Shown: piece after piece, positions 5,199 to 22,100 of the stretch
Position numbering within the stretch: position 1 is the first letter of the stretch
Layout of the letters: each line of letters opens with the position of its first letter
Source: an uncultured Candidatus Saccharibacteria bacterium
GTDB lineage: Bacteria; Patescibacteriota; CAZHWT01
Assembly (NCBI GenBank): GCA_964554805.1
Contig: CAZKPX010000001.1
Location: 317,798-381,797 of the forward strand
Direction of reading: 5' to 3'
DNA length: 64,000 bases
The notes under the pieces: model-generated
Seen by the model: the letters and a program-made list of their open reading frames with translations, nothing else
What the model was told of the DNA's origin: nothing
Database searches by the model: none
Made by a program: the position numbers and the translations under genes

Positions 5199-6218
5199 GT
5201 GTTGGGGGAGGTATTGCTATATACTTATGGTATGAGCGCTGAGTTGCCACAAATACCTGAAAATAGTGTAGACAAGCCGGGCTTGCCAAGTGATGAGCTA
5301 TTCAAGCCGACTGCCGAACAATTAGCAGCATTTGAAACGGTTTATGGGCGAGTGATTGAGGAATTGCCTGAGTTGGCTGATGATATTTCTAAATCACTTG
5401 AGACTCCTCATATTGGACCTTATCATTGTGAAGGGGATATGTTGCAACATCTCCAGCTGATGATTCAGACTTTGGATGATATGCAGACGGGGCGATTTGT
5501 GGAGTCTTTGCCTGAGGGTTATGCGGAGCGATTTAGATTATTGGCTCAGGAGCAGACCCGGTCCTGGGAGCAGTTTATATTTCTGCATGATGTGGAGAAG
5601 CCGAATTGTATGCAATTGAAGCTGGCGACTGAGCCTAAGAGTGTGCGGGTGGACATTAGTTGGGAGGAGTGGAAGGCGATCGAAGCGGCTGGTCGGCCGT
5701 ATCGGTTTGTGGATCCGGCTTCGGGCCAGGAGGCGGTGATCGAGTCGACGGCTTTCTTTCATCAAGGAAACAAGGCGATGGGTCGTCCAGCGGCTAGTCA
5801 TGGTCAGGCGGCGGCGGATAGATTGAGTGATGTGGAGGCTCATCCGGGCGTGGATGAAGCTATTATTCCGTTGATCGCTGATCATGAGTTGGCTTTTAGC
5901 TTCCAGGATAGAATTAATACCCGGACCTACACTAAGCACATTGCTGAGAATCCGGAGTTGGCGAATCGGATTGATGAGTTGATGCTGGTTAATTATCTGG
6001 ATCTAGCATCTTCGTGGAGAGCGGAGACTGGTAAGCCGAATATTGATAGTTTGTTGAATATGATGGTGTCTAGGGCGAATTATGAGTTGGTGCAGCAGGT
6101 GGTGGCTGAGTATGCGGCGAAGGGTGTTGAGGTGAAAGAGGCTGAGATTAATCGTTTGTATAAATTGCCAGTGGAGTTGAATAGGGAGATGGTGGAGCAG
6201 GAATTGCATAAGTCTTAG
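5199..6218 (+). CDS. hypothetical protein, possible HD-domain
   Basis: 339-aa ORF; weak HD-like motifs HCEGD and FLHDVEKP. Confidence 0.45.
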   Translation: MLGEVLLYTYGMSAELPQIPENSVDKPGLPSDELFKPTAEQLAAFETVYGRVIEELPELADDISKSLETPHIGPYHCEGDMLQHLQLMIQTLDDMQTGRFVESLPEGYAERFRLLAQEQTRSWEQFIFLHDVEKPNCMQLKLATEPKSVRVDISWEEWKAIEAAGRPYRFVDPASGQEAVIESTAFFHQGNKAMGRPAASHGQAAADRLSDVEAHPGVDEAIIPLIADHELAFSFQDRINTRTYTKHIAENPELANRIDELMLVNYLDLASSWRAETGKPNIDSLLNMMVSRANYELVQQVVAEYAAKGVEVKEAEINRLYKLPVELNREMVEQELHKS

Positions 6219-6270: not shown

Positions 6271-8565
6271 TTGGTTGATTGTATACTGATGGTTATGGGT
6301 GAGCAATTACTTAATAGATCTGGTGAGAATCAAATAGATGATCAGGGCGCGGTGGTTGAGCCTGTTCTTGAAGAGGCTGAGACAGTCGAGCTTGCTGGTG
6401 AAGATGGTATTGAGCCTGGGATAGATGTTGGCGATATGAGTGATTTGGAAAAAGAATATCTGAAGGCGATGTACAAGAAGTATTCTTCCACTGATGAGAT
6501 GGTAGGGCAAGCGATAGAGTTGATGAGTCAGGAGGAGTTGCGAGAAAAGGGCTCTGAGCTGGCGGTTGAGTGGGCTGAGCAGGTGTTGGTTGAGTTGGCG
6601 CCTCAGTATGCAAAGTCCGATTTTGTTCATCCTTCGATGGGCTCGTCTCAGGTGCAGGAAATGATTAAGACGGTATTGGGCGAACGGGTGGGTTTGGATT
6701 ATGATGGTTGGCACAGCGGTGAAAAGGTGCAGGCTATGGTGGGATTTTTGGATGGGTATGTGGATTTTTGTTTGGATACTCTTGAAGCTGCTGATGGAAG
6801 TGAGCGGGAAGCTGTGCGCAAGTCGGTGCTGGTAATGAACAGCCTTGTCTTTGGCGGCAGTCCAAGCTTGGCTAATTGGGCTGGAGGAATTGACGGGATG
6901 GTAAGACTAGCTGCTCGTTGTAATGGACAGCCTGATATGAGAGAGTCGGCTGGTGAGCGCATTGTGGGTGAGGTTGTGTATCAGATAGCTGGAAATAGCC
7001 AGGTTGAGGTTGTAAGTGAGGGATTGGTCGGGTTGCTGGCTGAGAAAAATGGTCTTGAGCGAATTGAGACAATGGAAGTGTTGAGTCAGGTGGCAAGACG
7101 GTCTTTGGGAGAAGGTGGATGGGCTGGTTCGGTGTGGCGGGGAGTGAGAGAACGGCTGCGAGAAATGAGCAGGCAGGAAAAGCCAATGGTGGCGATGTCG
7201 GCTGATGTAGCTTGGGTAGAGGTTGCACAGACGATGATTCGCTATGGATATGTTATCGATCCGGAGGATTTGAAGTTGGTCGAGGAGCTTGAGAGTAGGG
7301 GCTCTTGGGATGAGCAACTAGAGTTTGATGATCGTTTTGGCTCTTGGGTGACTATTGCTCGGGGTTGTAAGGCTCCGGTTGATGATTGGGGTTATATTCA
7401 GGGGATTGTGTGGGAGGGCGATGGCGCACATAGGTTGCGGTTGGAAGAAGTGACTGATGATGAGAGGATTAACCCCTTGGGGGTGTCGATGCCTGGTCGA
7501 GAAGGAGTGTTGTTGCAGCAGCTCCACCGGCCGGAGATGAGGGGGCGGGTTGAGGAGGTGTTGGGTGTGGAATTGAGTGAAGTTTCTTTGGCTTCGCAGA
7601 TTCATCTGTTGCGATTTATGGTTGAGGCTGATCAGGATCAATTGGGTCGTTTAAAGCAGGTGATGGATAGACATGAAGGAGCTAGGATTGGGCTGTTGGA
7701 GTCTTTTTTGGCTTTGGAGATGGGGGATGAGTTTGGGGAGATTTTACTGGAGATTGCTGAGTCGGTGGATGGGGAGCAGTTGGGGATGATTTTGGGCTGT
7801 GTGGCGGATATTCGTGAGTCGATGCGTGTGATTGCGAATCGGTTTGACTTGGGGGGCAGGGGAGATGGGTATGCTAAGGGGATAAATTTGGCCACGGTAA
7901 AGAGGGTGACTGAGGTTTTGAGTGTAATTCCATCTTTGGCTCGTGAGGAAGGAGTGGTAGCTGTGTCGCCGTATATGAGAGGAACTGCTGAGGTGAAAAT
8001 TGGTCAAATTGAGCATCCGATAGCTGTCTTAAAACTGTTGAACAAGGCTCTGCAGTCGATGGCCAGTGATATGCAGGAGGTCCCACAACAGAATTATGTT
8101 GAAAAGTCTGATCCATCTTTGAATCATGTAGTTTTTGAGAGTGGCAACCGAATGACGATTAGGCCACATGCTTCGGAGGTGGGGGAGGCCCGGATGAGCT
8201 TTAGTGTGGCTCTGACCATGGAGGATTTGATTGAGTGTGGCTATGCGTTGGCCGATGATGATATGTTGACGACTCAGGAGAGGAAGCTGACTATTAGGTT
8301 GGATCTGGAGGAGTCGACAGGCCTGTTGTCTCTGGATATGGGGACGATTGAAGTAAAAGATGGGCAAAAGATGAGATTTGTGGACTTGCTGGTTGGTTTG
8401 GTGGTGACAGCAGGGGCGCAAGAGATGGCCCGGCGGAGGGATTTGCCGATAGATGAGGCCAATAATCATGTCCGGGAGGCTTTTGACCCTGATTTGGCTA
8501 ATCCGGCCAGGTATGGTGATTATTTGGAGAATGTAAAATATAGTTTTGCGCCGGTACCTCTTTAA
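6271..8565 (+). CDS. hypothetical acidic protein
   Basis: 764-aa uninterrupted ORF; no recognisable motifs. Confidence 0.5.
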   Translation: MVDCILMVMGEQLLNRSGENQIDDQGAVVEPVLEEAETVELAGEDGIEPGIDVGDMSDLEKEYLKAMYKKYSSTDEMVGQAIELMSQEELREKGSELAVEWAEQVLVELAPQYAKSDFVHPSMGSSQVQEMIKTVLGERVGLDYDGWHSGEKVQAMVGFLDGYVDFCLDTLEAADGSEREAVRKSVLVMNSLVFGGSPSLANWAGGIDGMVRLAARCNGQPDMRESAGERIVGEVVYQIAGNSQVEVVSEGLVGLLAEKNGLERIETMEVLSQVARRSLGEGGWAGSVWRGVRERLREMSRQEKPMVAMSADVAWVEVAQTMIRYGYVIDPEDLKLVEELESRGSWDEQLEFDDRFGSWVTIARGCKAPVDDWGYIQGIVWEGDGAHRLRLEEVTDDERINPLGVSMPGREGVLLQQLHRPEMRGRVEEVLGVELSEVSLASQIHLLRFMVEADQDQLGRLKQVMDRHEGARIGLLESFLALEMGDEFGEILLEIAESVDGEQLGMILGCVADIRESMRVIANRFDLGGRGDGYAKGINLATVKRVTEVLSVIPSLAREEGVVAVSPYMRGTAEVKIGQIEHPIAVLKLLNKALQSMASDMQEVPQQNYVEKSDPSLNHVVFESGNRMTIRPHASEVGEARMSFSVALTMEDLIECGYALADDDMLTTQERKLTIRLDLEESTGLLSLDMGTIEVKDGQKMRFVDLLVGLVVTAGAQEMARRRDLPIDEANNHVREAFDPDLANPARYGDYLENVKYSFAPVPL

Positions 8566-8660: not shown

Positions 8661-9854
8661 ATGTTTGAATACCAAGAATTGTCACAGCACAAGCCTGGAT
8701 ATGACAGTGATGCTCAATTAATATCTAGCGATGTTGAGCTTGATCATACTCGTTATAACTCAGAAGTTGTTGATTCAGCCCGCCAATTAATAGCAGAACA
8801 GATTAATGATCCAGAGCTATCTGTGCAGCTTATGGATCGAGTGGGGGACATAGAGCAGTTTGGTGGCTGGCACGAATACGATGGAAGCACTCTGCTGGTT
8901 CGGACCGCAGAAATTATTCAGCAATGTGACAATATCACAAGACATGACGGTGCCCCAGAAATCGTCAGGAAGGCTGCAGCATCTTTGGTCAAAAGGAGCA
9001 TAGGTTTGGTTGACTCGGCAGCAAAGATTAATGAATTGCTTAAAGATTCAGATAGTAATTCTCCAGAAATTGACTTGCAAGAGATTGCTAGGGTACAGAG
9101 GGATTTTTATTATACAGTTCGCGCAATTAATCTAATACTTCAGTCAGATGAATCTATTGCAAGCGCATATGGCTACAATTCATCAGATTATATGGATCCA
9201 GAAGATTATACCCATTTGACTGCTGCTGTGGACTCTGCGCCTATGCCAGTGAACGAGGGACGGTTCTTTTCTTTTGAGGTTTGCAACCATTCTTATAACC
9301 CAGAAGGTGATTTTATTGATCTTCCGCAGGAAGACTTAAATGATATTGATGAGTTTCAACACAGGGGCAAAATCAAGCTGTTTATTAGAGAGCAAGGTAA
9401 AAATGCCAGAATTTGTTTTACCTATTTGCCTTATCAGGAATCAGCCAGCGCACACTATGAATCTGAGGTTACTCAATGGAGTGAAGGACGACAAGAGACT
9501 GTAAAGCATATTCAGCGCGGATTTAGAATTAGCATTGATCGAGATTCTCTAGGTATGTCTGTCGACGTCGCGCGTGGAGCGTGGGATGGTGTGCAATTTA
9601 AAAGGAAGGCTGATACAGGAGGCAAGGTGTTCGATCATGGCTCAGGAAGCCATGATTACAAAGCGTTCTCTGAAGATGACATCAAAGAATGGCATGACTT
9701 GGTGTTATGGGTTACTAACAGGGCTGCACAAACTACTGAAATAATGCAGACGATATTCCAGCCAGATGTTGAAACTAGCAATAGATCTTCCGGTTTTGAG
9801 GAATATTTATTAGCAACTCTACCTATGGAATATATAAATCGACCACCGAACTAA
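8661..9854 (+). CDS. hypothetical protein
   Basis: 397-aa ORF. Confidence 0.5.
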   Translation: MFEYQELSQHKPGYDSDAQLISSDVELDHTRYNSEVVDSARQLIAEQINDPELSVQLMDRVGDIEQFGGWHEYDGSTLLVRTAEIIQQCDNITRHDGAPEIVRKAAASLVKRSIGLVDSAAKINELLKDSDSNSPEIDLQEIARVQRDFYYTVRAINLILQSDESIASAYGYNSSDYMDPEDYTHLTAAVDSAPMPVNEGRFFSFEVCNHSYNPEGDFIDLPQEDLNDIDEFQHRGKIKLFIREQGKNARICFTYLPYQESASAHYESEVTQWSEGRQETVKHIQRGFRISIDRDSLGMSVDVARGAWDGVQFKRKADTGGKVFDHGSGSHDYKAFSEDDIKEWHDLVLWVTNRAAQTTEIMQTIFQPDVETSNRSSGFEEYLLATLPMEYINRPPN

Positions 9855-10711
9855 GAAGTGGTGTTTTCCCAGATACTATTGAATAGTTGGCGTAAAGTCT
9901 GAGCGATCTCGGGGTTGGTGATAATGGTAGTCACTACGCCCTGACGGTAGGTGCTGAGGGCAATATTGTCGCCGTAGACCATAATTTGGGCTGGAAAGAG
10001 GTGAGTGCCGAAGTGGCGGACAGCTACATTATTGCTGGCCAGCTGCTCTATTTCTTCTGGACTTAGTCTTTCTGCCTCAGAATAGATGGTTCTGACAGCG
10101 ATGCCTGCGGCGATTTGACGGGCGATTTGTTGGTCAATGGCTGTGGCTGACTGAGGATCATCTCGGTCATGGGCGCTAGGGAATATTAATAGTTCTTCTT
10201 TTTGGCGGATAATGTCATCAAATAGGGTGGTTAGGCCTTGAAGGCCCTCTAGATAGAGGACGCCTGGCTGTTCTTGGGTTAGCCTATAGGTGGATAAAAG
10301 TGACGGCAAGAGGCCTTCCAGGCGGTCAGAGCGGTCTTTGAGAGCCTTTTGTTGGCGGAGAATCATTTGCTTGAGGCTGGATGGGCTTTGGGCGGAGTAG
10401 GTGGTTTTGGCGGTGGAGGTATCTTTGGTGACGAGTTGGAGCTGTTCTAGCTGAGATAGGACCTCGTAGGCGTTGGTGCGGGTGATGTTGATGGCGGTGG
10501 CGAGCTGGGGTGGGGTGGTTTGGGGGGCGGTGAGGAGGTGGAGGTAGGTTTGGGCCTGAGAGGGATTGAGGCCGGCTTGGATTAGTTGGTCCAGGGCGGA
10601 GCTGTGCTCGGTTGTTGAGGATTGAGGGCTGGATGGTTTCGGCATGGGGTTTTGGGTTATGGGTGTCTTGGGGTGTATGGGTATTATAGGGTGTTTAATC
10701 AGTGCTGTCAA
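9851..10711 (-). CDS. TrmB-family transcriptional regulator
   Basis: N-terminal wHTH segment GLNPSQAQTYLHLLTAPQTTPPQLATAINITRTNAYEVLSQLEQLQLV matches the TrmB pattern. Confidence 0.6.
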   Translation of the reverse strand: MTALIKHPIIPIHPKTPITQNPMPKPSSPQSSTTEHSSALDQLIQAGLNPSQAQTYLHLLTAPQTTPPQLATAINITRTNAYEVLSQLEQLQLVTKDTSTAKTTYSAQSPSSLKQMILRQQKALKDRSDRLEGLLPSLLSTYRLTQEQPGVLYLEGLQGLTTLFDDIIRQKEELLIFPSAHDRDDPQSATAIDQQIARQIAAGIAVRTIYSEAERLSPEEIEQLASNNVAVRHFGTHLFPAQIMVYGDNIALSTYRQGVVTTIITNPEIAQTLRQLFNSIWENTTS

Positions 10712-11618
10712 TAGTTTTTTGACAAAATATAAATAGAGTTTATCTGAGATAATAGGCTATTAGTCTATATCTCAGTACCCTAGGCTATTGACATAATGCT
10801 AACTATGGGCTATACTGTGTTCAGTTAAATCGATTAGCTCAGTCAGCTGATTGAGTGATTTAACAAGTACCTTTAAGTTTCTTATAAGCTATTAGTAAGG
10901 ATGAAGTACGTCCGCCAGCTGGCGGATCCCTATATGTTTCATTCTGATTAATAGTAGATATGAATAATGGTGATAACCTGGATCGCTTCGGACGACAGGA
11001 AAGCCTAAATCATTCTACTGAGGCACAGGGTCGCTCTGGCCCGGGGAAACCTGGACCAGGGGATCAGTCTTATCTCCGCCATAATCGACGCGAGACGGCC
11101 TGCTGTATCCATTATTTCCATATCAACTGCTCCACGGCAATACACCCTATCTTTCATCTTCTGATGACGAAAGTATTGCTGGTGGAGAAAGGGGACAGGT
11201 GGTCCAAAAGGAATTACTCAATTCCATATAGATTGCCTGTCCTCAAGCGCAAAATTATTATGGTTGGTAGTTGGCAGTTAGTGGTTGGCGGAGAAAGTCT
11301 CTGCTAACGGATTGCTGAAAACTACTAACGCAATCTGGCAATACCAGATTGTTTCAAGCCTTTGTCTGGTCTGCTTAACCTATCTGAGCTAGACTATCTA
11401 ACCCAATGTTATCCTGAATTTGATTCCGGATATGGGTTGAGATCCTAGTCTAATACTCTGGTTGAGCCGACCAAGCAGATGCTTGTCGGCTCTGTTTGTT
11501 GCCACATGATGGGACGGATGGAGTACACAGCTACGCTGTGTGGTTAGCGGTTGGCAGTTAGCTGTTGGCCGAGAACTGCAGGAAACGAAGAGAGACGTAC
11601 CTTTACAAATCAATAATG

Positions 11619-11713
11619 GCTGCAATATTACCCACCTCTCCGTGGTGCAGCTTCCGCCAGTTGGCGGACCAGCCTTTGGCTGGAGATGAATCCGTATTTA
11701 ACGGTAAACCAAG
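11619..11713 (+). repeat. three-hairpin structured element, b/e family copy 1
   Basis: tccgccagttggcgga hairpin, then ccagcc-ttt-ggctgg, then ccgt-attta-acgg, then taaaccaag; a homolog at 15440-15511 carries compensatory changes. Confidence 0.55.
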
Positions 11714-11737
11714 TGGTAATAGTGGAGACTTTTCGGT

Positions 11738-11844
11738 CCCCTTTAGTGGTTAAAGTGTTTTTGCTGGTCTTACGATTGTTCTCTTCGTCATTGCGAGGAG
11801 CGTAGCGACGCGGCAAGCTGTTTTGTATTAACCATTAAATGGGG
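11738..11844 (+). repeat. R3 structured repeat copy 1 (core tcgtcattgcgagRagcgtagcgacgcggcaa)
   Basis: 14-bp closing helix cccctttagtggttaa / ttaaccattaaatgggg; copies at 14329-14431 and 22101-22205. Confidence 0.6.
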
Positions 11845-11928
11845 CTGAAGGGGGAGAGTCAGAGGTCTGAGACTTGTCTCAGTGCTGATTAGCTCTGCAC
11901 CTGGGTTCGATTCCCGGCAGCTCCACAA
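11841..11928 (+). ncRNA. tmRNA-like tRNA-like domain (88 nt), lacking the mRNA-like body
   Basis: 5' ggggctg pairs with 3' cagctcc, including a G3-U70 pair; T-arm ctggg-ttcgatt-cccgg directly before the acceptor 3' strand; the middle is a simple helix plus hairpin with no tag ORF. Confidence 0.35.
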
Positions 11929-13076
11929 AGTACCCCATCGTCTATGGGGGTGGGCAGGCAGGTGCGTCGCGTCTTGCGATAGCCTCGTTTTGTCCTTCAT
12001 CCTCGAAAGGGATGAAAAAATGACTCAGGCACAGGCACAGGCACAGGCTCAGATTGTAAATCGAGCGTTGTCTTTGGTCGGCCAGGTGCCGACCGACCAT
12101 CCGGCTTCGGCTCGGCGAGCAAGGGCTCGGAGAGCCCCTGCTTGGGGCCGCCAGCAACGTGCTGGCGGAAGTCCGCGCTGCCGACAAGACAGCTAAGGCC
12201 ACCCTAACGGGTGGCAAAAAGAAGCGCAAATAGCGGTTCTGCCCGGTGAGTGACCGGGCGGAAATCAAATAGTCACTTCGAGGTGGACGTCTCGTTAACC
12301 GTATTCTGGTGTGGCCGACCACTGCTGTGCGATTTGCGCAGGAGTTAATTGGCTCCAGACTCATTCTGGAGAATCATATGGGGCTGAACCCCCTGGGAGA
12401 TTGAGGGATCTCCCCAGACAAAAATATCCTTCCTCCAGCTCGGAGCTAGGTGCGCAAGGTGTGCATCTGGAAGAGTTACAATTCTGGCCTACGTCCATTC
12501 CACGGATATGGCCTAGCGAAGGAGGGTCTGTTATGACCTAACTCCGCGGTGGTTGGGGCATGCTTCCCCAACCACCAACAACTTATAGACTGCGAGATAG
12601 ATTACCTCCACGTGGTGCAGTCTGGATAGATAATTCGAATAGATTCCTGTCTACACAGGAATGACGGATTGTTGAACTAAGTATCTAAACAGGAGAGTAT
12701 TCTTCTTCTCAATAGCATAATTCATCGGTCATCAGTGCGCGTTGGTTGTGCTGTTGAGGAGTGGAAACACTTCTCCGGTTACAGCATCTTGCGAGGGTTT
12801 ATATTCCCTCGATCTAGCTCTGCTGAGACTGTTCGTCGTTCTGCTCCAAGCCTATCATGGCTGGGTCAGGGGCGATGCATGGTCGGGCCCTCCGATATGG
12901 GTAGCGGTCTGGTTGGGGACTTTTAGTCCCTGACTAGGCCTCCCGCCTATCTGGGTTGGCTAGTCTGCCCTACAGGGGTATTAGCGGTGCAATGCCGCAG
13001 GCTAAAAATACAGACCAGTGTTCTGACTGCCACTGGGGTTCATTGCAGCCTGCAATGGATTAAACTCTGTAGTCGT

Positions 13077-13269
13077 AAATCCGTACCCTCGAACCGTCAG
13101 GAAGCGGTATTCGCCAATCTGGCGAAGTCCCCGGTTCAGCTCCTCGGACTACGATCCCCCAAAATCGTGTCCGAGGAGAACCCCTCGGCAGCATCCGCCA
13201 ACTGGCGGAGATACGCCTCCTCGTGGCGCTGCTGGATAGTCTATTGAAAGATGGATGAACTGAGTATCT
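13077..13269 (+). repeat. R1 structured repeat copy 1 (about 193 nt)
   Basis: aaatccg..ccgtcagga..cgccaatctggcg..variable hairpin..tccgccaactggcgga..agatac..GAAA-loop hairpin..gtatct; about 85% identical to 14117-14310 with compensatory substitutions. Confidence 0.65.
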
Positions 13270-13335
13270 AGGAGAAGTTTTAGCGTAAAGATTACTTCTG
13301 TCCCAATTAAGATTCAAGGTTGCTTGAGTTTTGGT

Positions 13336-13470
13336 TGGGGGAGGAGTGGTATTAAGACGCTACTTCTTTCGACCCCGTACCGCGTAAGCGGATTGAGTGA
13401 TTCTCAATAGCCTTGGTCGCTTGATTAAGGCTTTCCTGGCGGTGCAGACCGCCGCCGCCCATAGGAGGGC
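13336..13470 (+). promoter_or_regulatory. R2 conserved structured leader upstream of the ORF starting at 13474
   Basis: Shared with 20419-20547: G-run closing stem, ccgc-GNRA-gcgg hairpin (gtaa vs gtga), variable hairpin, ggcggt-gcag-accgcc hairpin just before the GGAGG RBS. Confidence 0.5.
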
Positions 13471-13473
13471 GCA

Positions 13474-13968
13474 ATGGCTATCGTGAAGACAAGCGATGTT
13501 GGTATCCGAGTCAATCAACTCTCTCTAGGGATGTGGAGAGAGTTGGGAATAGAGAAGCCTTCCAGGTTTTCTTTATGGGACTACCTGGAAGGCCTCGACA
13601 GGTCCGTCGAGGCCTTGGGCCTCAGGGGAGTGGCAGTAGCCTCAATGAGGTTCCTGCCAGACGCTGCGGTTGTCATCGTATGGGAGCTACGACTCCCGTA
13701 CGATGAAGCTAGGCGGTTCGAAAGTCTATCTGATGGGCAGAAGGAGCGATTCCTTCTGCCCTTAGACAAACCGCTTGAATTCTCGGAAAAGATTGTGAGC
13801 CTCAACACGGAGAGAAACACCCCTCCATGGGAGAGACTCACAATCTCTGGGACGGATTCGTCTCAGTCGTATCTTAGCAGGCCGACAGATCTCTTGCTTC
13901 AGTCGGAGGCGGAGGCTGCAATTGCAGCTTACCGCAGTCGGCTCGAGGAGCTGGTCTCCTCGCTGTAG
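13474..13968 (+). CDS. hypothetical protein
   Basis: 164-aa ORF; GGAGG RBS 5 nt upstream; preceded by the R2 leader. Confidence 0.5.
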   Translation: MAIVKTSDVGIRVNQLSLGMWRELGIEKPSRFSLWDYLEGLDRSVEALGLRGVAVASMRFLPDAAVVIVWELRLPYDEARRFESLSDGQKERFLLPLDKPLEFSEKIVSLNTERNTPPWERLTISGTDSSQSYLSRPTDLLLQSEAEAAIAAYRSRLEELVSSL

Positions 13969-14116
13969 GTTTTTCTAGCGGTCGCGACCGCTTAGCCCGG
14001 GGTTGACCGGGTGATCTCGAAGCCGTTTGCGTAGAGCGGCATCAACTAGTCTTCTCTACGTCCAGCGCACTGCTGCTGGGGTTAATGACAGCCTGTCATT
14101 GACTAGAAGTGCAGAC

Positions 14117-14310
14117 AAATCCGCAAACCTCTGAACCGTCAGGAGCGGTATTCGCCAATCCGGCGAAGTCCCCGGTTCAACTTCCTCAGGTTGCGACTCC
14201 TTGTCGCACCTGAGGGAGATTCCCTCGGCAGCATCCGCCAACTGGCGGAGATACGCCTCCTCGTGGCGCTGCTGGATAGTCTGTCGAAAGACAGATGAAC
14301 TAAGTATCTA
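14117..14310 (+). repeat. R1 structured repeat copy 2
   Basis: Collinear with 13077-13269. Confidence 0.65.
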
Positions 14311-14328
14311 GCATCAGAGACTTTCTGT

Positions 14329-14431
14329 CTCACTTAGTGGTTAACCTGTTTTTGTTGGTCTTACGATTGTTCTTCTCGTCATTGCGAGAAGCGTAGCGAC
14401 GCGGCAATCTAGTGTTTCGACCATTAAGTGA
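14329..14431 (+). repeat. R3 structured repeat copy 2
   Basis: Closing helix ctcacttagtggtt / gaccattaagtgag; the same core as copy 1. Confidence 0.6.
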
Positions 14432-14568
14432 GGGAGAAATCTCTCTGAAGAAAAGAATCAAAACCCTGGGGAAACTCAGGTCTCTGCCCGTCAGCAGAGG
14501 GAGTGAAGTGTAGTGGCCTGGCAGCGTGCCAAAGCCCGTACCGCTTATGCTCCGCATCCTGTGAAAGG

Positions 14569-15250
14569 GATGAACATGAACTGGCAGTTGATTTTTTCAG
14601 TGGCCTTCGTGGCCACTGTGGCGATCGCTATGATTGCCTTCGCCGGCCGAGAAATCGGCGAGGTGAAGGCGGGCGCCGCCGCCGCGGCGCGAAAGGCCGC
14701 GGCTACGGCCGCGGAGGCTACCGCCCAGAAATGGGCGGTGAAGTACCGCAACCTGGAGGTCCTTCGGGACCTCCAGGCTCTCTTCGGAAGCACCCCTGTG
14801 ACGATCTTTGGATCGTCACAGAAGGGGGGCGGTTTCACCGCCCCCGAACGACCGTCCGACCTCGACCTGATGGTCGAGGTTGACGACGAGACCTGGGCGG
14901 AGTGGGCCGCCCAGGTCTACCCGGCAGATCTCGTCGGGGCGGAAGCCCCCCCAGTTTACAACGACAACTGGGGCGGTGGCGAGACCGCTCTGGTTAGGGG
15001 GAGGACAATCACCGTTCTCCCTTACGAGACGGTCTACCCGACGCGCATTGCGCGCCGGGAGGCCGCCCAGGAGATCCTAGGCATCGAGATTGAGCCCCTC
15101 GGGCTCAATCTCGACATCTTCCTCTTCCCGCACTCGTTTGTGCGGGAAGAGATGACCATCCCGGCTTGGGATGGTGCGGAGACCGGAAGGTCTTTCCGGG
15201 AGGAGGTCCTGGCAGGAGTCAAGCTCTCTGAGCTTCAGCCTGCGGACTAA
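14569..15250 (+). CDS. nucleotidyltransferase (Pol-beta/MNT superfamily) with an N-terminal TM helix
   Basis: Motif IFGSSQKGGGFTAPERPSDLDLMVEVDD (GS-x9-SDxDL); N-terminal hydrophobic helix WQLIFSVAFVATVAIAMIAF; Ala-rich linker. Confidence 0.6.
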
Positions 15251-15439
15251 TGACCCTCAGCGCACTGCTGCGCTGGCTGACGACGCATTCGTTGGCGAAA
15301 TGAAGCAGATAGACCTTACCTCGGATCCTTCGCGACTGAGATGGTCGAACCCCGGGGAGCGTAAGCTCTCTGGGGAAACCCATGGCAGCAATTGATTCGC
15401 CTCTACGATGGCTCGCCTAGCCGAAATGCTAGTGCAGGC

Positions 15440-15511
15440 TGGCGCTGCTTCCGCCGGTTGGCGGACTGGTCTTTTGACCAGAGATGAATCCGTCTTGAAC
15501 GGTAAACCAAG
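15440..15511 (+). repeat. three-hairpin structured element, b/e family copy 2
   Basis: tccgccggttggcgga, then ctggtc-tttt-gaccag, then ccgt-cttga-acgg, then taaaccaag. Confidence 0.55.
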
Positions 15512-15661
15512 AATCAAAAATAAACGACATTGATGTCTCCAGGCTACTTGCTGGGGAACAATCAGGGGGCTTTTAACGTTGACCCCTGGTTGTTCCTTGG
15601 GCAGGGAACTAAAGCCAGCCGCGGGTGCGGTAGGCTGAACAATTGCCCTAGAGGAGGCCCT

Positions 15662-16012
15662 ATGGCCACCAAATTCATCAATCTAACCCCTCATACGATC
15701 AATGTTGTTGTTGTTGGGGAGGAGGGTGACGTTGTCGCCTCCTTCCCGGCTTCGGGACAGGAGGCTCGGGTGGCAACCACCCGGGAGCTGTCTCATAACC
15801 TCGACGCCGATGGTGTCGGGATCCCGGTCTTCAGGACCGGGTACGGGGAGATCGAGGGGCTGCCGGCCCCCGAGGCCGGCACTATCTTCGTCGTCTCTGG
15901 TCTGGTGGCTGCGGCCACCGACCGTGATGACGTCGTCTCTCCGGGCGAACTCGTCCGGAACTCCGAGGGGCAGCCGATTGGCTGCCGGGGGTTCTCCCGC
16001 CCCGCTCGATAG
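15662..16012 (+). CDS. hypothetical protein
   Basis: 117 aa from ATG 15662 with a gaggagg RBS; the longer ORF is open from 15530. Confidence 0.45.
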   Translation: MATKFINLTPHTINVVVVGEEGDVVASFPASGQEARVATTRELSHNLDADGVGIPVFRTGYGEIEGLPAPEAGTIFVVSGLVAAATDRDDVVSPGELVRNSEGQPIGCRGFSRPAR

Positions 16013-16209
16013 GGAGAGTTCGGTGGGTGTCCGAACTAAAATAACCACCCCAATTCCAGCCAGTGTGTCTGTGGCTGGGGGTTGGCTGTTGCTTGCAGCT
16101 GACGAAACAAATCTTCGGACATAGGGACCTAACCTGCTGCGGAAGCCTTTGGGTGACTAAGGCAATATCGGTTCCGGCTCCTGGGATGGTGAGATTACTC
16201 ATCGTTCTA

Positions 16210-16303
16210 GGAGACCTTCGTGGCAGCATCCGCCAACTGGCGGAGATACGCCTCCTCGTGGCGCTGCTGGATAGTCTGTTGAAAGATGGATGAACTAAGT
16301 ATC
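16210..16303 (+). repeat. R1 repeat, 3' half only
   Basis: ggcagcatccgccaactggcggagatacgcctcctcgtggcgctgctggatagtctgttgaaagatggatgaactaagtatc. Confidence 0.6.
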
Positions 16304-16658
16304 AGAAGGAAGAGTTTATTTTTGTTCTTAGCCCGTTGCTCTTAGGTGCCTAGTTGACCCTATTGGAAGATAGGGCCAATGGGTTGATTATTTAGCTGAG
16401 AGCAGCGTGGTGGGAATGAAAGAGTTGACGGCTTCTCGGGTGAGGAGCTTTTGGTGTATCTGGGGAGTGAGCAGGTATGCCGGGAGCTCCTCATTGAGGA
16501 GCGCAACCTAGGTGAATTGCAGTAAAAACTCTTTTGGGCAACCCTGCCCGATGCCGTAGGTGCTCTGGATGAAATTGAGCGCTGAATGGAAGTCAGTTAA
16601 AGACTGGCCGAGCAGGGTGGGTATTGTCGCGAGACGCCCCTGGCTCGAAGGAGTTGCT

Positions 16659-19600
16659 GTGAGCAACAATATTCTTCTTCCAATCTCCGCTTATCGGGCG
16701 GAGATTGAAGCAGGGGTGGATGGCGATTCGGTGGTGGTTGTCACCGCTGAAACGGGGACTGGGAAAAGCACGCAAGTGCCGCAGTACATGTTGGAGGCTG
16801 GGTATGATCTGGTAATCACCCAGCCGCGTCGGCTGGCCGCCCGAACAGTGGCCCAGCGAGTGGCCGAGGAAATCGGTCAGGAATTGGGCGGAATTGTTGG
16901 TTATCGGACGGCGGAGGATCGGCGAGATTCGTCGGACACCCGCTGTTTATTCGTGACCGATGGTCTTCAGCTTGTTCGCGAGCTGATGGGTCATGGGAAG
17001 CGGCAAGTTTTGATTCTGGACGAGGTCCATGAATGGAACGAGAACCTGGAAGTTCTCGTTGCCTGGGCCAAGCTCCAGATCGAAACTGGAGCTGATTTCA
17101 AGCTAGTGCTGATGAGCGCTACGCTTGAAGCCGACAAGTTGGCCGCCTATTTTGGTGGTGCGCCAGTTATCTCGGTTCCAGGCCGACTGTTTCCGGTGAC
17201 GGAGCAGAAGCCAGGAGGTTCGGTGGAAGCCGACGTTGCGGAGCTGGTTCGCCAGAGGCGCAATACACTGGTATTCCAGCCGGGCAAGGCGGAGATTGAG
17301 GCCACCTGTGCTGCTTTGCGGCAGATGCAAGTGTGGGCTGAGATTTTGCCTTTGCATGGGCAGTTGACCGCCGAGGAGCAGGCTCGCTGCTTCCGGCATT
17401 ACGGTAAACCCAAGGTGGTGGTGGCATCAAATGTGGCGCAGACCAGCGTCACAATTGACGATATCGACGCCGTTGTCGACTCCGGCATGGAGCGACGGAT
17501 TGAGTTGGTGGATGGGGTTGAGGGCTTGTACCTTAAGCCTATTTCGCTGGCTGATTCTGCGCAGCGCCGGGGTCGAGCTGGTCGGACGAAGGCAGGGATC
17601 TATATCGATCGCTGCCCGAGTGTCGACCGACCGGAGTTTCCGGTGGCCGAGATCCTGCGCAAGCGGCTCGACCAGACGGTACTCCGGTTGGCCAGTGCTG
17701 GGTTTGACATGGAAGAGCTGGAATTCTTCCATCAGCCTGACAAGGCTGACATCCACGAGGCTCGTCAGTCTCTAGTGGCTCTCGGCTGCATGACAGCGGC
17801 TGGAGAAGTCACATCGATGGGGAGACGGGTTAACAAGCTGCCGGTGTCAGTGCAGTATGCGCGGATGCTGGTGGAAGCTGAGCGGTTGGGGGTGGTGGAC
17901 GATCTCCTGACTGTGGCAGCTATCTTGGAGCAGGGCGGTATTACAGTTGCCCCCCCAAGTCGGTCTAATCTGACCCGACCTGATTGGCGCCGAATGGTGC
18001 CGCAGGAGCAGGAGTCGGATATTCTTGGTCAGCTGGTTGTCTATAAAATGGCAGCTGAGATGACCAATGACCAACTCTATCAGAGTGGGGTGGCTCTGAA
18101 GGCCTATTATCGGGCTAAGGAGATCCGCTCTCATTTGGCGAGGGCTCTGGGCGCTCGGTTCCATTCTGGTTCAACGGGTCGCCGCGAGGACATCCTCAAA
18201 GCGGTCTGTGCCGGGATGGTTGACCATCTCTACCATGGCACTGGTGGGGGATGGAAGAATGGTGACGATACTGTCCGAGAACTGGGCAGTTCGTCGCTGG
18301 TTCAGAATGCCAGTTGGTTGGTGGGTCGGCCTTTTGACCTGCAGATCAAGGCACGCTATGGGCATACCACCCTGCGCCTGATCGAGCTGGCGTCAAAGGT
18401 TGAGCCGAACTGGCTGGTCGAAGTCGCTCCGCATTTGGTGGAGCAACAGACTGGCCTGCAACCTCGCTTTGATGACCGGAAGGGGGTGGTGGTTTCGACC
18501 ACCAAGACTCTCTTTAATGGTCAAGAAGTGGGGGAAGAGGAGGTTGTGGATCGGGAGCACCCCGAAGCAGCCGATCTCTTTGCTGGCTGGCTGGCTGGGC
18601 TGAGTCAATCTCGGGCGGAGAGTCTGGGGTTGGAAATTATGGTTCGCAATCTGGCTCGCAACCAACGAGCTAAGGAGCTGAACCAGCGGGCCGGCGAGAC
18701 CCTCTTTGGGGTGGTTGAGCTGCAGGCTTGGTATCTTGCCAAGCTGGAGGGCGCTGGCAACTTTAAGGAGGTGGTGGAGAAGCAGGTGGCTGCGAAGTGC
18801 CTGCTGCCCGATCTCGACCAGGATTTGATTGATCTGGTGCTCCAAGAGCAGCCAGACTCGATTGAGTTGCTGGGCGAAGGCCTGAAAGTAGAGTATGTTG
18901 ATGGCTACGGTCATCGGCGTACTCACCCTAGAGTTCGGTTGTCGGATCAGCAGATTCAGGCGAAGGCCTGGCTTGAGCTGTCTGATGACCAGCCGGTTCG
19001 CCTGTCTGGCGGGCGAATGGTTGAAGTGGCGGTTGAAGTGGCTTATACTACTTTCTCCTCTACTGAGCCATTCCTGCTGAAGGAGCGGGTGCGCGAGTAC
19101 CTGAACCAGAAGCAGTGGGACGCCTGGCATCGACCAGAGGTCTCAGTTGAGGGGCTGGAGTCGGCAGATCAGATTCCGTTTATGACCGCTGTCTATGGAC
19201 AGTGCGTGGTGACGGGGCAGGATCTGCTGGCTTACGGTACCGTTCGGGCACGCCGGTATTGGTCCAGGATTGATCGCTGGCAGCCGGTGTGGGTTCGGTC
19301 TCTTGATGAGGCTGAACGGGTTCGATCCGAGGCAGTGGCAGCACTTGAAGAGGTGCGAGCTGAAGCTGAGGTGAAGGCTATGGAGTCCAGATTGAAGATT
19401 CTGGATGCCCATAACGGCTGGTTCTACCTTGATCGCTCGTCGGAGGCTTATAAGCGCCTTCAGGGCATAATGGTAGAAGTCCCGCCCGCTAGTCGGGAAT
19501 GGTTGATAGAGGCGGGGCGACTGGTTGAAGAGCTGGCTCCTGCCCTTGAGCAGGCCGAGCAAGATGGCTTGGCTGCTGAACAGGCAGCTAAGGCTGAGCA

Positions 19601-20090
19601 ACAGCAGATCGAAGAGAAGGCGGCTGGAATATTGGCTGCGGTCAATCCCAGTGGTCATCACAACTTTGGTTTGGCTGAGGTTCGGTTGGCGAGCCAGTTG
19701 GCCGAACAAGCGGTTCGGCTGGTGGGACAAGCCCGGGCTCAGGCGATCTTCCGAGAGGAAGCGGATGCTTCTTATCGAAGATCGCTCAAATGTCAGCGAA
19801 TCAGAGAGGCTATTCCTGGTTTGTTTGACACGGAAGTTGGGTCGCGGTTCCTCCAGATTCCGGCGCGGTATGTCACCGAATGGTGGTTGCAAGCGACGGC
19901 ATTGTGGTTGGAATCGAATACCACCACGTCGACCGAGGAGTTGCCTGCTCCTGCTCCTGCTCTGATTGAGCTGGAAGAGCAGCCGACGGTGTCAGTTTTG
20001 GCTGTCAAAGAACAGTCTGCCGAGGAGGCAGAAGAGTCTTTTGACAGTCCTATGGCGCTAGCAATGCGTCGGGCCGGGATTAAGTTTTAA
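16659..20090 (+). CDS. DEAH-box (HrpA/HrpB-like) ATP-dependent helicase with a roughly 450-aa C-terminal extension
   Basis: Walker A TGTGKSTQVPQ, DEVHE box, helicase-C and HA2-like region QRRGRAGR; GTG start at 16659 with an aaggag RBS matches the HrpB N-terminus (LPI..); the ORF is open from 16560. Confidence 0.85.
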   Translation: MSNNILLPISAYRAEIEAGVDGDSVVVVTAETGTGKSTQVPQYMLEAGYDLVITQPRRLAARTVAQRVAEEIGQELGGIVGYRTAEDRRDSSDTRCLFVTDGLQLVRELMGHGKRQVLILDEVHEWNENLEVLVAWAKLQIETGADFKLVLMSATLEADKLAAYFGGAPVISVPGRLFPVTEQKPGGSVEADVAELVRQRRNTLVFQPGKAEIEATCAALRQMQVWAEILPLHGQLTAEEQARCFRHYGKPKVVVASNVAQTSVTIDDIDAVVDSGMERRIELVDGVEGLYLKPISLADSAQRRGRAGRTKAGIYIDRCPSVDRPEFPVAEILRKRLDQTVLRLASAGFDMEELEFFHQPDKADIHEARQSLVALGCMTAAGEVTSMGRRVNKLPVSVQYARMLVEAERLGVVDDLLTVAAILEQGGITVAPPSRSNLTRPDWRRMVPQEQESDILGQLVVYKMAAEMTNDQLYQSGVALKAYYRAKEIRSHLARALGARFHSGSTGRREDILKAVCAGMVDHLYHGTGGGWKNGDDTVRELGSSSLVQNASWLVGRPFDLQIKARYGHTTLRLIELASKVEPNWLVEVAPHLVEQQTGLQPRFDDRKGVVVSTTKTLFNGQEVGEEEVVDREHPEAADLFAGWLAGLSQSRAESLGLEIMVRNLARNQRAKELNQRAGETLFGVVELQAWYLAKLEGAGNFKEVVEKQVAAKCLLPDLDQDLIDLVLQEQPDSIELLGEGLKVEYVDGYGHRRTHPRVRLSDQQIQAKAWLELSDDQPVRLSGGRMVEVAVEVAYTTFSSTEPFLLKERVREYLNQKQWDAWHRPEVSVEGLESADQIPFMTAVYGQCVVTGQDLLAYGTVRARRYWSRIDRWQPVWVRSLDEAERVRSEAVAALEEVRAEAEVKAMESRLKILDAHNGWFYLDRSSEAYKRLQGIMVEVPPASREWLIEAGRLVEELAPALEQAEQDGLAAEQAAKAEQQQIEEKAAGILAAVNPSGHHNFGLAEVRLASQLAEQAVRLVGQARAQAIFREEADASYRRSLKCQRIREAIPGLFDTEVGSRFLQIPARYVTEWWLQATALWLESNTTTSTEELPAPAPALIELEEQPTVSVLAVKEQSAEEAEESFDSPMALAMRRAGIKF

Positions 20091-20418
20091 TCTTTGTCGT
20101 GAGGCGGAGGCCTCGTATCAATACTCCAGCGGCTTGTGTTGACCGCTGACTGCCTACAGCGTGTAGGTAGTAAATTCTCAACACATCGGGCCTGTCCGTT
20201 ATTGACGGAGAACGACCCATTGGGTAGGGGGCTAAAACCCCTACCTACTTTACGGCTGCATATACATGCCTCTTCGTGGCGTAGCTAGAAATTCGTTTAT
20301 GTGACGAAGCTAAATGTATGAGAAGTGGAAGAAAGCTTACTTCTGTCTCAATCAGAGCTTGAGACTTTAGGCGTAGATTCCGGATCTAGTCCGGAATGAC
20401 GGCCTTTTGAGCTTTGTT

Positions 20419-20547
20419 TGGGGGGAGAAGTGCTATTAAGACGCTACTTCTTTCGTCCCCGTACCGCGTGAGCGGATTCAGCATCTCAATCCCCGGCCAC
20501 TTGGCTGGGGTTGTTGGCGGTGCAGACCGCCCACGCCTTTGGAGGGC
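20419..20547 (+). promoter_or_regulatory. R2 conserved structured leader copy 2
   Basis: Homolog of 13336-13470, directly upstream of the ORF starting at 20551. Confidence 0.5.
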
Positions 20548-20550
20548 AAA

Positions 20551-20994
20551 ATGATCATCTGCCCCACCATTTACTATTGTCATCCCGGGCAGGAGATACT
20601 TCTGCCTGTGGGGGCGGTCCGTCTGCAAGGGCAGGCGGATGGTTGGTGGGTGGGGGAAGATATCCCTCATCTGCCGTTTGGCCAGAGAAGGGTGAAGGGA
20701 GGGGTCTTCATTGTAGAGGAGGACCTCTCCGATCCCTCGTTCTATGTGGAGGTTGTTATCCTCCACAATGTGAATGAGGGCCTGCCTGGGGCCATCCCCG
20801 CGCTGTTGATTGGGATTGGGGAAGCAGCGCCCCTTGCTGTCCCCAGTAAGAGTGCCTATCGCACTCTGACCGCCGAGGCTACATGTCCTCACTGCGGTTG
20901 TGGTCGCGATTTTAGGCAAAGCTGGGTGGCGGTCGAAGGCTGTTATTTCTGCGATACAGCCATTCGTTCCCCGTTCAGTATGAGCCCAAGCTAG
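20551..20994 (+). CDS. hypothetical protein with a C-terminal Cys4 zinc-ribbon
   Basis: CPHCGCG..x16..CYFCD; GGAGG RBS; the overlapping minus-strand ORF 20386-20919 was rejected. Confidence 0.45.
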   Translation: MIICPTIYYCHPGQEILLPVGAVRLQGQADGWWVGEDIPHLPFGQRRVKGGVFIVEEDLSDPSFYVEVVILHNVNEGLPGAIPALLIGIGEAAPLAVPSKSAYRTLTAEATCPHCGCGRDFRQSWVAVEGCYFCDTAIRSPFSMSPS

Positions 20995-21300
20995 ACTGAA
21001 CCCCGGAGAGCTGGAGGCTCTCTGGGGAACCCAATGGCAGTATCCCCAACTGGCGGAGATACGCCTCCACGTGGCGCTGCTGGAATAGTGCTTATTGTCA
21101 GGCTGAACTAAATTCTGCAGAATAAATCTGCGAATAAATCCAAACAGGATGACATTGAGTATTAACTGAGTATCTGAGGGAGAGTTTTTTCTGTCCGCTT
21201 TAGTTTTTTGATTATGAAAATTGATGCTATGGGTACGTTGTTGCTCGGTGTCGATGGTGAGTTAAAAGATTGAAGCGGGGAGATGAATGATGGAGGCTGG

Positions 21301-21478
21301 GTTATGGCAGTGTGCTGTGGCGGCTTCTGTCGGGTATATTTGACATAAGCTGGGCTTGTGACTAGGAACCCGTTTCTGAAATTTGTCTGTGGCCTTGAGG
21401 AAGATAGGGCTGAGGGGTTATAGTGCGGTTGATGTTTTTTAACGGTTAGCCGCTATTTCGGAGACGGGTTTTTGGTAA
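21301..21478 (+). repeat. R4 direct repeat, left copy (about 178 nt)
   Basis: About 93% identical to 22267-22440. Confidence 0.7.
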
Positions 21479-21597
21479 GTAGGGGGGATTGCCGGTCCGC
21501 TTGAGGCTTTTGGGTAATGAAGCTTGAAGTGGGGTGGTATGTGAGGGCAGGGAAAGATTCTCTGCTTGGGACCTCCCAATTAGAAAGGAGGGGTGCA

Positions 21598-22085: not shown

Positions 22086-22100
22086 TCAGAGACTTTCTGT

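Follow-up and report, generated by a model that had tools for sequence, protein, structure and literature searches.

The stretch of DNA analysed here, 64,000 nucleotides (nt) of contig CAZKPX010000001.1 and hereafter called the window, is chromosomal DNA of the Patescibacteria, or candidate phyla radiation (CPR), with dnaG, rpoD, truB, ftsH and polA present and an FtsH protein whose named relatives (54-61% identity) come from CPR3, Gottesmanbacteria, Microgenomates and the "Patescibacteria group". Our subject is a family of structured repeats, R1, that an earlier note had picked out in this DNA, and whose 3' part we read as a candidate self-cleaving ribozyme of the hepatitis delta virus (HDV)-like class. 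The repeats lie in a region of about 10.8-23.1 kb that is probably one transcription unit, running from a promoter-like site at 10788 to a terminator-like hairpin at 23061, the single strong site of each kind that our scan found to bracket it; co-transcription of the unit is what we infer from this arrangement. The unit holds seven credible plus-strand open reading frames (ORFs), together with three doubtful ones at its 5' end, and nine ribozyme or ribozyme-like elements that fill its nine gaps, one per gap and all on the plus strand (Table 1). The ORFs are mutually unrelated, yet untranslated-region (UTR) and ribozyme modules are common to them. One encodes an HrpA-like RNA helicase, with its start codon probably near 16659, and sits between ribozymes C and E; upstream of the unit, a TrmB-like regulator gene is faced by a minus-strand promoter that matches the consensus perfectly (10711-10683) and is divergent from the 10788 site. 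The G+C content of the unit is 0.53-0.59, against 0.44-0.50 in its surroundings.

Table 1. Features of the transcription unit and its neighbourhood in the window, followed by the hammerhead ribozymes of related helicase loci (positions within each locus).
Feature	Position	Strand	Basis or remark
TrmB-like regulator gene	9851-10711	-	Pfam TrmB, 7.9e-10
Sigma-70-like promoter	10788-10816	+	promoter scan; TTGACA-17-TATACT, 11/12 matches
Variant F, HDV-like fold	11618-11720	+	sequence; R1 model 17.1 bits, E 0.017
tRNA-like domain of transfer-messenger RNA (tmRNA), without mRNA-like part	11841-11928	+	RF00023, 42.8 bits (gathering 47), E 2e-14; fold
Putative ribozyme copy H, HDV-like fold	12588-12687	+	descriptor; R1 model 28.9 bits (non-training)
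5' half of R1 copy A, 3'-UTR hairpin series	13030-13186	+	minimum free energy (MFE) -64.8 kcal/mol, z -5.65
Putative ribozyme copy A	13187-13269	+	descriptor; R1 model 109.8 bits
ORF, 164 aa	13474-13968	+	no family match
5' half of R1 copy B, hairpin series	14070-14226	+	fold
Putative ribozyme copy B, core same as A	14227-14309	+	descriptor; R1 model 113 bits
ORF, 226 aa	14570-15250	+	weak nucleotidyltransferase-like match (PF22600, E 0.053)
Variant G	15384-15517	+	R1 model 13.9 bits, E 0.12
ORF, 116 aa	15662-16012	+	PADLOC Unk_01 ("unknown small protein, sometimes fused to CARF"), phrog_30542
Putative ribozyme copy C	16222-16303	+	descriptor; R1 model 109 bits
HrpA-like DEAH-box RNA helicase	16560-20090	+	TIGR01967, 8.6e-92, below cutoff
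Putative ribozyme copy E, compact HDV-like, without J1/2 hairpin	20254-20320	+	RF02682; descriptor; R1 model
ORF, 147 aa, Cys-rich C-terminus	20551-20994	+	
Putative ribozyme copy D, R1-type core (GGCAGU, L3 UCCACGU)	21036-21175	+	descriptor; R1 model 81.5 bits for 21036-21116
ORF, 63 aa, hydrophobic	21598-21789	+	
Chimeric copy I, F-type 5' half and R1/H-type 3' half	22010-22081	+	repeats D3, D8; R1 model 46.7 bits
ORF, 173 aa, last of unit	22529-23050	+	
Terminator-like hairpin, 16-bp stem then T-rich tail	23061-23095	+	first strong one on plus strand
L022, three hammerheads	7707-7789, 8368-8446, 14676-14758	+	Rfam E 8e-4 to 0.5; long stem II
L023, two hammerheads, one each side of helicase	1524-1578, ~5460-5510	+	one 48.9 bits, above 48.5 gathering
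L024, one hammerhead	~4670-4720	+	
L029, three hammerheads, bracketing helicase	~2480-2590, 5067-5121, ~8380-8470	+	

Judged from sequence and predicted structure, the 3' 83 nt of each full R1 copy fits the nested double pseudoknot of the HDV-like self-cleaving ribozymes. In copy A, helix P1 would be formed by GGCAGC and GCUGCU (13187-92 with 13228-33, the first pair being G.U), P2 by AGAUAC and GUAUCU (13209/10-14 with 13264-69), and P3 with its loop L3 by GCC-UCCUCGU-GGC (P3 13215-17 with 13225-27, L3 13218-24). The GG that follows P1 (13234-35) is able to pair with the CC of L3 as P1.1, P4 occupies 13240-55, and the joining segment J4/2, GAACUGA, holds a candidate catalytic C at 13260 (14300 in copy B). 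A 16-nt palindromic hairpin, tccgccaactggcgga, is inserted in J1/2 (13194-13209 in copy A). The earlier note had described this hairpin in both full copies, along with a long-range agatac/gtatct pairing and a GAAA-loop hairpin; all three are there, and they correspond to the J1/2 insert, P2 and P4, so that what it had taken for a likely novel non-coding RNA has a conserved 3' half that fits a known class. The helix order in the copies, P1-P2-P3-P1'-P1.1-P4-P2', is canonical for HDV-like ribozymes, and at the level of sequence CUGA or CUAA stands directly 5' of the P2 3' strand while L3 reads UCCUCGU, UCCACGU or UCUUCGU. The first pair of P1, from which the position of cleavage is predicted, is G.U in A, B, C, D, E, F and G and G-C in H; in copy A, the cut would fall between 13186 and 13187, at the 5' end of P1.

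Members of the HDV-like class are mostly found with structure descriptors, because their sequence conservation is low. We used a strict descriptor (P1 of 6-7 bp, P2, a 3-bp P3, L3 of the form.C[CU].CG, P1.1, and CNRA in J4/2), which took the place of a looser one whose matches were mostly false positives. It recognised six loci, those of copies H, A, B, C, E and D, all on the plus strand and within 12.5-21.2 kb, and none elsewhere in the 128 kb of strand searched, that is, the window on both strands; dinucleotide shuffles gave a chance expectation of 0.35 matches per window on average (maximum 3) and 0.21 per island (maximum 2). An Rfam scan in E-value mode returned HDV-F-prausnitzii (RF02682) at copy E (35.1 bits, E 0.0016), aligned end to end with it, and, as the sole plus-strand match of copy A, the HDV-like drz-agam-1 (RF01787, 13.9 bits); the same scan of the window found no twister, pistol, hatchet or hammerhead. 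A covariance model, here called the R1 model, was trained on copies A-D alone and nevertheless recovered I (E 3.7e-10), E (29.4 bits, E 1e-5) and H (E 1.5e-5), as well as an HDV-like ribozyme from a member of the Nanoarchaeia (28.9 bits). Its matches in the window are all on the plus strand and inside the transcription unit, with nothing convincing beyond 10.8-22.1 kb. A covariance-model search, as the earlier note had proposed, recovered copies outside the training set within the window and gave no R1 match in the related helicase loci described below; the Rfam scores are all sub-gathering.

Compensatory change was assessed on two alignments, one of helix segments set between fixed artificial anchors and a separate, model-fitted one; both were used instead of MAFFT on the raw copies, which, for E and the Nanoarchaeia copy, had wrongly set P1 against the J1/2 hairpin. 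In the model-fitted alignment (8 sequences), 95% of the cells pair and 9 of 21 pairs are altered on both sides, compared with pairing in 37-50% of cells in a control in which the partners were slid by 1-3 columns. In the structural core alignment, which includes the pseudoknot helices, both sides have changed in 11 of 17 pairs, namely all six of P2, two of P1, two of P3 and one of P1.1, and pairing across both pair-count alignments is 95-100%. The pattern of differences between the ribozymes of A and B, whose flanks are 58-77% identical, is a cleaner signal than these counts: only 5 of the 83 positions differ, four of them in P4 with pairing kept and one being a G/A at the R of CNRA. The covariation reported earlier for the stem of the GAAA hairpin is borne out, since UCUAUU/GAUGGA, UCUGUC/GACAGA and UCUGUU/GAUGGA all pair and A-U interchanges with G-C via a G.U intermediate. 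The wider claim that compensatory change keeps structure at the RNA level is upheld.

It could be argued that R1 is a non-catalytic structured RNA, be it a protein-binding or regulatory UTR element or a small RNA, that merely resembles the HDV fold, its hairpins recruiting a factor such as the neighbouring helicase or setting the stability of the messenger RNA (mRNA). Such an element would sit well with Rfam scores that are all sub-threshold, with a unit rich in conserved hairpin modules that carry no ribozyme signature (D2, D5 and the post-ribozyme hairpin, described below), and with the departures of variants F, G and I from the canonical fold. It does not sit well with six copies that match the full double-pseudoknot descriptor, L3, P1.1 and J4/2 cytosine included, where 0.35 would be expected, nor with the complete covariation of P2, a pseudoknot helix that spans 50-120 nt. 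Moreover, relatives hold a different self-cleaving class at equivalent places, which points to cleavage as the shared function. We therefore consider a non-catalytic role improbable.

The full copies of R1 had been described as collinear and about 85% identical (13077-13269 versus 14117-14310), and we find 166 of 198 alignment columns, or 84%, to be identical. This identity is uneven, amounting to 94% in the ribozyme part (the last 83 nt), 77% in the 5' part and 58% in the central variable hairpin; a long stem is yet predicted for that hairpin in both full copies, just as the earlier note had claimed. A 28-mer and a 20-mer from the R1 core occur three times each in the window, where chance would give none. 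The partial copies already listed are real (16204-16303, 91% identical to the reference; 21017-21116, 60%; and the elements here called I and H), and to them we add the diverged copy E and variants F and G. The family is hence larger than first reported, and it is longer on its 5' side by one covarying hairpin (CAUUGCAG..UGCAAUG in one full copy versus AAUGACAG..UGUCAUU in the other), across which it reaches to about 13030 and about 14070.

Repeats of this kind might also be relics of a recent segmental duplication or of gene conversion, either decayed ribozymes or neutral sequence, and the identical cores of A, B and C and the damaged look of D, H and I would be in keeping with that origin. 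Neutral decay would not, on the other hand, leave flanks at 58-77% identity beside ribozymes at 94% with structure-neutral changes only, nor keep all the helices of E and H, which are strongly diverged; we regard relics as very improbable. That the repeats are protein-coding sequence or ordinary intrinsic terminators is scarcely credible. Short ORFs do overlap the repeat (12987-13247 on the plus strand, 13060-13317 on the minus strand) and G+C-rich hairpins are many in the region, but several 1-nt indels between A and B break any reading frame, which excludes coding sequence, and the hairpins are without U-tracts, the terminator scan finding none at the repeats.

The sequences on either side of the putative ribozymes are themselves modular. 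Each 167-nt segment 5' of ribozymes A and B has a folding z score of about -5.6, and the long variable hairpin within it has its main helix at about 13141-13178 in copy A (MFE hairpin 13133-13182) and lies at 14181-14218 in copy B (-27.5 kcal/mol). Hairpins of -18 to -27 kcal/mol stand 5' of seven predicted cleavage sites, and in A, B, C, D, E and G the main helix ends exactly 8 nt before G+1 despite differing hairpin sequences. On the 3' side, each ribozyme is followed by a small conserved hairpin, RGAGAC-UUUY-GUCUC, and in three cases module D2 comes next, an extended stem-loop of about 100 nt with some compensatory changes (11731-11819, 14322-14410 and 22094-22182, directly after ribozymes F, B and I). 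D5 modules (13337-13397 and 20421-20481) lie 5' of the ORFs at 13474 and 20551, whose proteins are unrelated, and D4 modules (21307-21430 and 22271-22394, 95% identical) lie 5' of those at 21598 and 22529. With hairpins on its 5' side and the conserved hairpin and D2 on its 3' side, R1 would be the junction of a 3' UTR and a ribozyme-capped 5' UTR.

The remaining elements of the array depart from copy A to differing degrees. Copy C, 5' of the helicase gene, has the core of A and B but a different upstream hairpin (16176-16216). Copy E has P1 GGCUGC/GUAGCU, P2 UAUACAU/AUGUAUG, L3 UCUUCGU and an AG as P1.1, and copy H has P1 GACUGC/GCAGUC, P3 ACC/GGU, L3 UCCACGU and an enlarged P4. In copy D, the proximal 3' strand of P2 (ending at 21116) is degenerate, and a second, intact GUAUCU follows at 21170-75 after an insert of about 60 nt. 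Variant F (P1 GGCUGCA/UGCAGCU, P2 UAUUACC/GGUAAUA, presumed P1.1 AG) and variant G (P1 GGCAGC/GCUGCU, P2 UUGAUUC/GAAUCAA, P3-L3 GCC-UCUACGAU-GGC) each have the P1 3' strand separated from the presumed P1.1 by two hairpins, with one further hairpin 5' of the P1 3' strand in G. P1, P2 and the second hairpin covary between F and G, with P4 and J4/2 conserved; in predicted folds of F, the MFE and centroid structures alternate between P1 and P2. We take F and G for HDV-derived variants, their activity being uncertain.

We note that the same non-coding modules stand beside unrelated genes and form chimeras, which indicates recombination or portability of the modules. The earlier note had named a mobile module as one possible reading of R1, and such a module may be at hand, although no transposition signature was found. 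It would go further to see in R1 a mobile or recombinogenic piece of DNA (an element like a miniature inverted-repeat transposable element (MITE), a cassette linker or an attC-like site) whose RNA structure is incidental or secondary; chimeras such as copy I, the identical hammerhead repeats around a ParE toxin pair in the related locus L022, and the dispersal of the CCGCC-N4-GGCGG hairpin, also outside the unit, would all agree with it. Scores for terminal inverted repeats, of 4-10, however lie within the shuffled range (mean 5.5-5.7, maxima 9-11), the flanks differ between copies with no target-site duplication, and the sole tyrosine recombinase in the window (50819-51685) is 28 kb off. The single orientation of all copies, co-linear with the genes, and ribozyme substitutions that spare the structure speak against it as well, and we give a DNA module with incidental RNA structure little credence. 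Portability of the modules by recombination is plausible and compatible with ribozyme function.

Two specific kinds of DNA element were considered and ruled out. For a simple MITE, the check proposed in the earlier note found no terminal inverted repeats above the shuffled expectation and no target-site duplications, with all copies on the coding strand. An integron attC site would be one imperfect hairpin with R''/L''-L'/R' cores, but R1 folds into several local hairpins plus a pseudoknot; GTTRRRY, with 9 occurrences where 12 are expected, shows no enrichment, and there is no integrase in or beside the unit. An IS200-like Y1 transposase gene is found at 36214-36897 on the minus strand.

The CCGCC-N4-GGCGG hairpin occurs ten times in the window (10912, 11654, 13195, 14235, 15451, 16230, 24613, 24893, 44600 and 48980), where 0.04 occurrences are expected. 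It is placed in J1/2 in the R1 ribozymes, and after P1' in F and G, there with its loop reverse-complemented. Outside the unit, a small GIY-YIG gene (about 24645-24880) has one copy on each side, both within a repeat TATATTCCTCGGTA..CCGCCAGCTGGCGG, and the copy at 48980 adjoins a tRNA-Ile (anticodon UAU, 48800-48876, minus strand). The hairpin looks like a dispersed palindromic element that has been inserted into ribozymes.

The 5' end of the unit has features of its own. Between 10960 and 13186, only doubtful ORFs are found, for example a low-complexity one of 58 aa ("MTQAQAQAQAQ..."), together with F, D2, the tRNA-like element and H, and the first 2.4 kb of the unit may hence be mostly non-coding structured RNA. 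The tRNA-like element, placed after variant F and D2, comprises an acceptor stem of 7 bp that includes G3.U70, a T arm and a 3' end reading ACAA rather than ACCA, and lacks about 280 model positions that cover the mRNA-like and pseudoknot part of tmRNA; it may serve as a signal for RNase P/Z processing or as a tRNA-like decoy. In the window at large, GC skew is strongly positive over nearly the whole length (up to 0.5) and most genes are on the plus strand.

The array can also be followed in short-read data. The protein of the ORF at 13474 was found identical on a Logan contig of 1039 bp, which breaks inside the flanking ribozyme repeats, its start falling at position 27 of the model in one ribozyme copy and its end at position 25 in the next; the assemblies L017 and L018 (Logan SRR16798009 and SRR16798008) are short-read assemblies of the source organism and are broken inside the ribozyme repeats. 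Such breaks mean that metagenome assemblies will systematically fragment, and under-report, arrays of this type.

Relatives of the helicase (49-63% identity) sit in the same type of locus in other Patescibacteria, with a TrmB-like gene on the opposite strand, small variable ORFs and then the HrpA-like helicase (9851-23100 in the window; L019, L022, L026 and L028 among the related loci). The variable ORFs are often Csx3-like and otherwise include a CARF-associated small protein, toxins, acetyltransferases and a resolvase, and the locus type has the look of a hotspot, accessory or defence-type, centred on an RNA helicase; in L022, it lies between secY and adk. Type III hammerheads, intergenic and on the helicase strand, are present in four of nine distinct related loci (L022, L023, L024 and L029; Table 1), most of them scoring below the Rfam gathering threshold because of long stem II inserts. 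In L022, the hammerhead closes a repeat of 196 nt on its 3' side, the 5' part being a run of hairpins, a layout like that of R1, and two such repeats, 100% identical, flank a minus-strand ParE-type toxin pair. The related loci have no intergenic sequence in common with the window and no HDV-like fold. In two of them, multi-copy intergenic repeats occupy ribozyme-equivalent positions (L019: 6575-6660, 8532-8599, 9713-9746 and 13455-13509; L021: 1104-1167, 2501-2564 and 9581-9644, and 4408-4465, 9687-9744 and 10777-10834) without matching any Rfam family, even at E below 1; possibly they are other, perhaps new, self-cleaving or processing elements. Shared gene neighbourhoods of unrelated ribozyme classes have precedent in hammerhead, twister, pistol and hatchet (PMC6765202).

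Pattern scans for the R1 core yielded 8 chance matches in coding DNA in IMG/VR and, in GTDB, 5 chance matches (four of them one conserved Verrucomicrobia coding sequence) and one real HDV-like ribozyme, in a metagenome-assembled genome (MAG) of Candidatus Nanoarchaeia; in JGI metagenomes, only that Nanoarchaeia element was found. It is compact, without P4 (GGCUGC..GCC-UCUACGU-GGC-GCAGCU-AG..), and occurs in the MAG and on a 166-kb JGI metagenome contig (L014 7300-7355, the same as L015 1988-2043), just 5' of a small ORF and below Rfam gathering. A blastn search against phages gave no match, protein-based locus searches with two cassette ORFs found nothing in viral contigs, and a look-up of the exact RpoD protein was likewise empty.

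We suggest that R1 is a composite module of an HDV-like ribozyme and 5' hairpins that punctuates a polycistronic RNA by self-cleavage, and, on the sequence evidence assembled above, we consider this likely. The 5' 110-160 nt of R1, a string of stable hairpins, would form the 3' UTR of the preceding cistron, and each element would fold into its double pseudoknot as RNA polymerase passes, the upstream hairpin probably also protecting the ribozyme against mispairing with its flanks. Catalysed by the J4/2 cytosine (C13260 in copy A) and a bound Mg2+, an attack by the 2'-OH of nucleotide -1 would next cut the RNA immediately before G+1; this chemistry is taken from established knowledge of the HDV class. 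At its 3' terminus, the upstream product would have a strong hairpin, then a few nucleotides and a 2',3'-cyclic phosphate; the downstream product would start with a 5'-OH, followed by the compact ribozyme fold, the conserved hairpin and the next gene's 5' UTR. In this way the unit would yield single-gene RNAs whose ends are structured and resist exonucleases and whose stabilities are independent. Here we infer the cleavage itself, as well as any effects of the end structures on stability or translation, from the computed fold and the position of the elements.

Several observations weigh against this proposal. Every copy scores below the Rfam gathering score (35.1 bits against 44 for RF02682, 13.9 against 37 for RF01787), poorly so in copy A because of its J1/2 insert. 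P1 is of 6 bp, with a G-C in place of G.U as its first pair in copy H; P2 of copy I is broken, down to 3 bp, and this copy is probably impaired; and we know of no characterised HDV-like ribozyme that tolerates inserts of the F/G type by the active site, between P1 and P1.1. Both pair-count alignments were fitted to the proposed structure and yield no statistic of R-scape grade, and the independent sequence types are few, the core being identical in A, B and C, which may be recent copies; the pair counts are for these reasons supportive and not a formal test. Lastly, five of the nine related helicase loci are without any known ribozyme, and the pattern scans of IMG/VR, GTDB representative genomes and JGI metagenomes turned up no outside orthologue of R1.

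Neither the ribozyme class nor the clustering of ribozymes between bacterial genes is new; novelty is claimed here only for the arrangement, the host and the variants. Like drz-Fpra-1 (RF02682) and drz-Agam-1 (RF01787), the elements of the window combine the HDV-like helix order with a G.U at the base of P1, a 3-bp P3 with a 7-nt L3 (UCYNCGU), CNRA in J4/2, and C residues of L3 predicted to pair with the two nucleotides after P1. They differ in their sub-gathering scores, their 6-bp P1, the J1/2 hairpin of the R1-type copies and the inserts between P1 and P1.1 in F and G. Large J1/2 inserts are known in some eukaryotic HDV-like members, such as drz-Agam-2 and R2, and divergent HDV architectures in ribozyme-rich neighbourhoods are said to have been described by Weinberg and co-workers in 2015.

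The closest parallels in arrangement come from other settings. In prophages, single genes are framed by hammerhead clusters that cut polycistronic transcripts in vitro (Perreault et al., 2011; PMC3088659). As in our array, several co-oriented ribozymes lie between short, mostly uncharacterised genes of one unit, and cutting to gene-length RNAs has been proposed. In contrast, the class in the window is HDV-like and would be cut at its own 5' edge, the ribozyme staying on the downstream RNA; the locus is a chromosomal one of Patescibacteria, with an HrpA-like helicase, a TrmB-like regulator and no recognisable prophage; and each of nine gaps holds one ribozyme, a different density. Theta ribozymes are minimal HDV-like ribozymes with short P4 and J1/2, found within about 5 nt of tRNA 3' ends in gut phages (PMC10879173). 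Common to them and the window copies are the HDV-like fold, a prokaryotic or mobile context and processing, here predicted, of the 3' end of an upstream RNA, whereas the window copies have P4 and a J1/2 hairpin and no tRNA beside any copy, the tRNA-like element at 11841-11928 having no ribozyme after it. HDV-like ribozymes also occur at the 5' ends of R2 and L1Tc retrotransposon RNAs (PMC6765202). There too, the ribozyme frees a downstream coding RNA from a co-transcript and stays as its structured 5' end, as we propose for R1, but the host of the window is bacterial and the unit contains no reverse transcriptase or endonuclease. Ribozyme insulators of the RiboJ type are engineered, and the tRNA punctuation of organelles is processed by RNase P and RNase Z. 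Both share with the window elements that they are cis-acting RNAs between cistrons that standardise mRNA ends, as those of the window would do; the latter are natural and predicted to be self-cleaving. Our literature search found no description of an HDV-like array with one ribozyme per intergenic gap, nor of one in Patescibacteria, and none of the J1/2 palindrome insert, the F/G topology or a fixed hairpin-plus-8-nt upstream context.

A broader proposal, which we offer tentatively and think rather unlikely, is that the ribozyme and hairpin modules are portable "punctuation linkers" of a conserved accessory-gene locus of Patescibacteria, in which each gene would travel together with a ribozyme of its own and the class would be interchangeable, HDV-like here and hammerhead in relatives. 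If so, the L019 and L021 repeats and the F/G topology would be new self-cleaving ribozyme architectures, and the co-encoded helicase or RtcB-type circularisation could use as substrates the cassette RNAs, whose ends would be 5'-OH and 2',3'-cyclic phosphate.

Apart from glmS, the bacterial roles of self-cleaving ribozymes are largely open (PMC6765202). An HDV-like element in each gap of this unit, together with hammerheads at equivalent positions in relatives, argues that cleavage itself, and not the motif, has been selected. The array supplies natural HDV-like variants, with the palindrome insert in J1/2 and the inserts of F and G, as well as a defined hairpin-plus-8-nt upstream context, and the L019 and L021 repeats are promising ground for new ribozyme classes. 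Taken as candidate self-cleaving elements, the R1 modules would link ribozyme punctuation to a conserved RNA-helicase and TrmB-like locus in the little-studied Patescibacteria.

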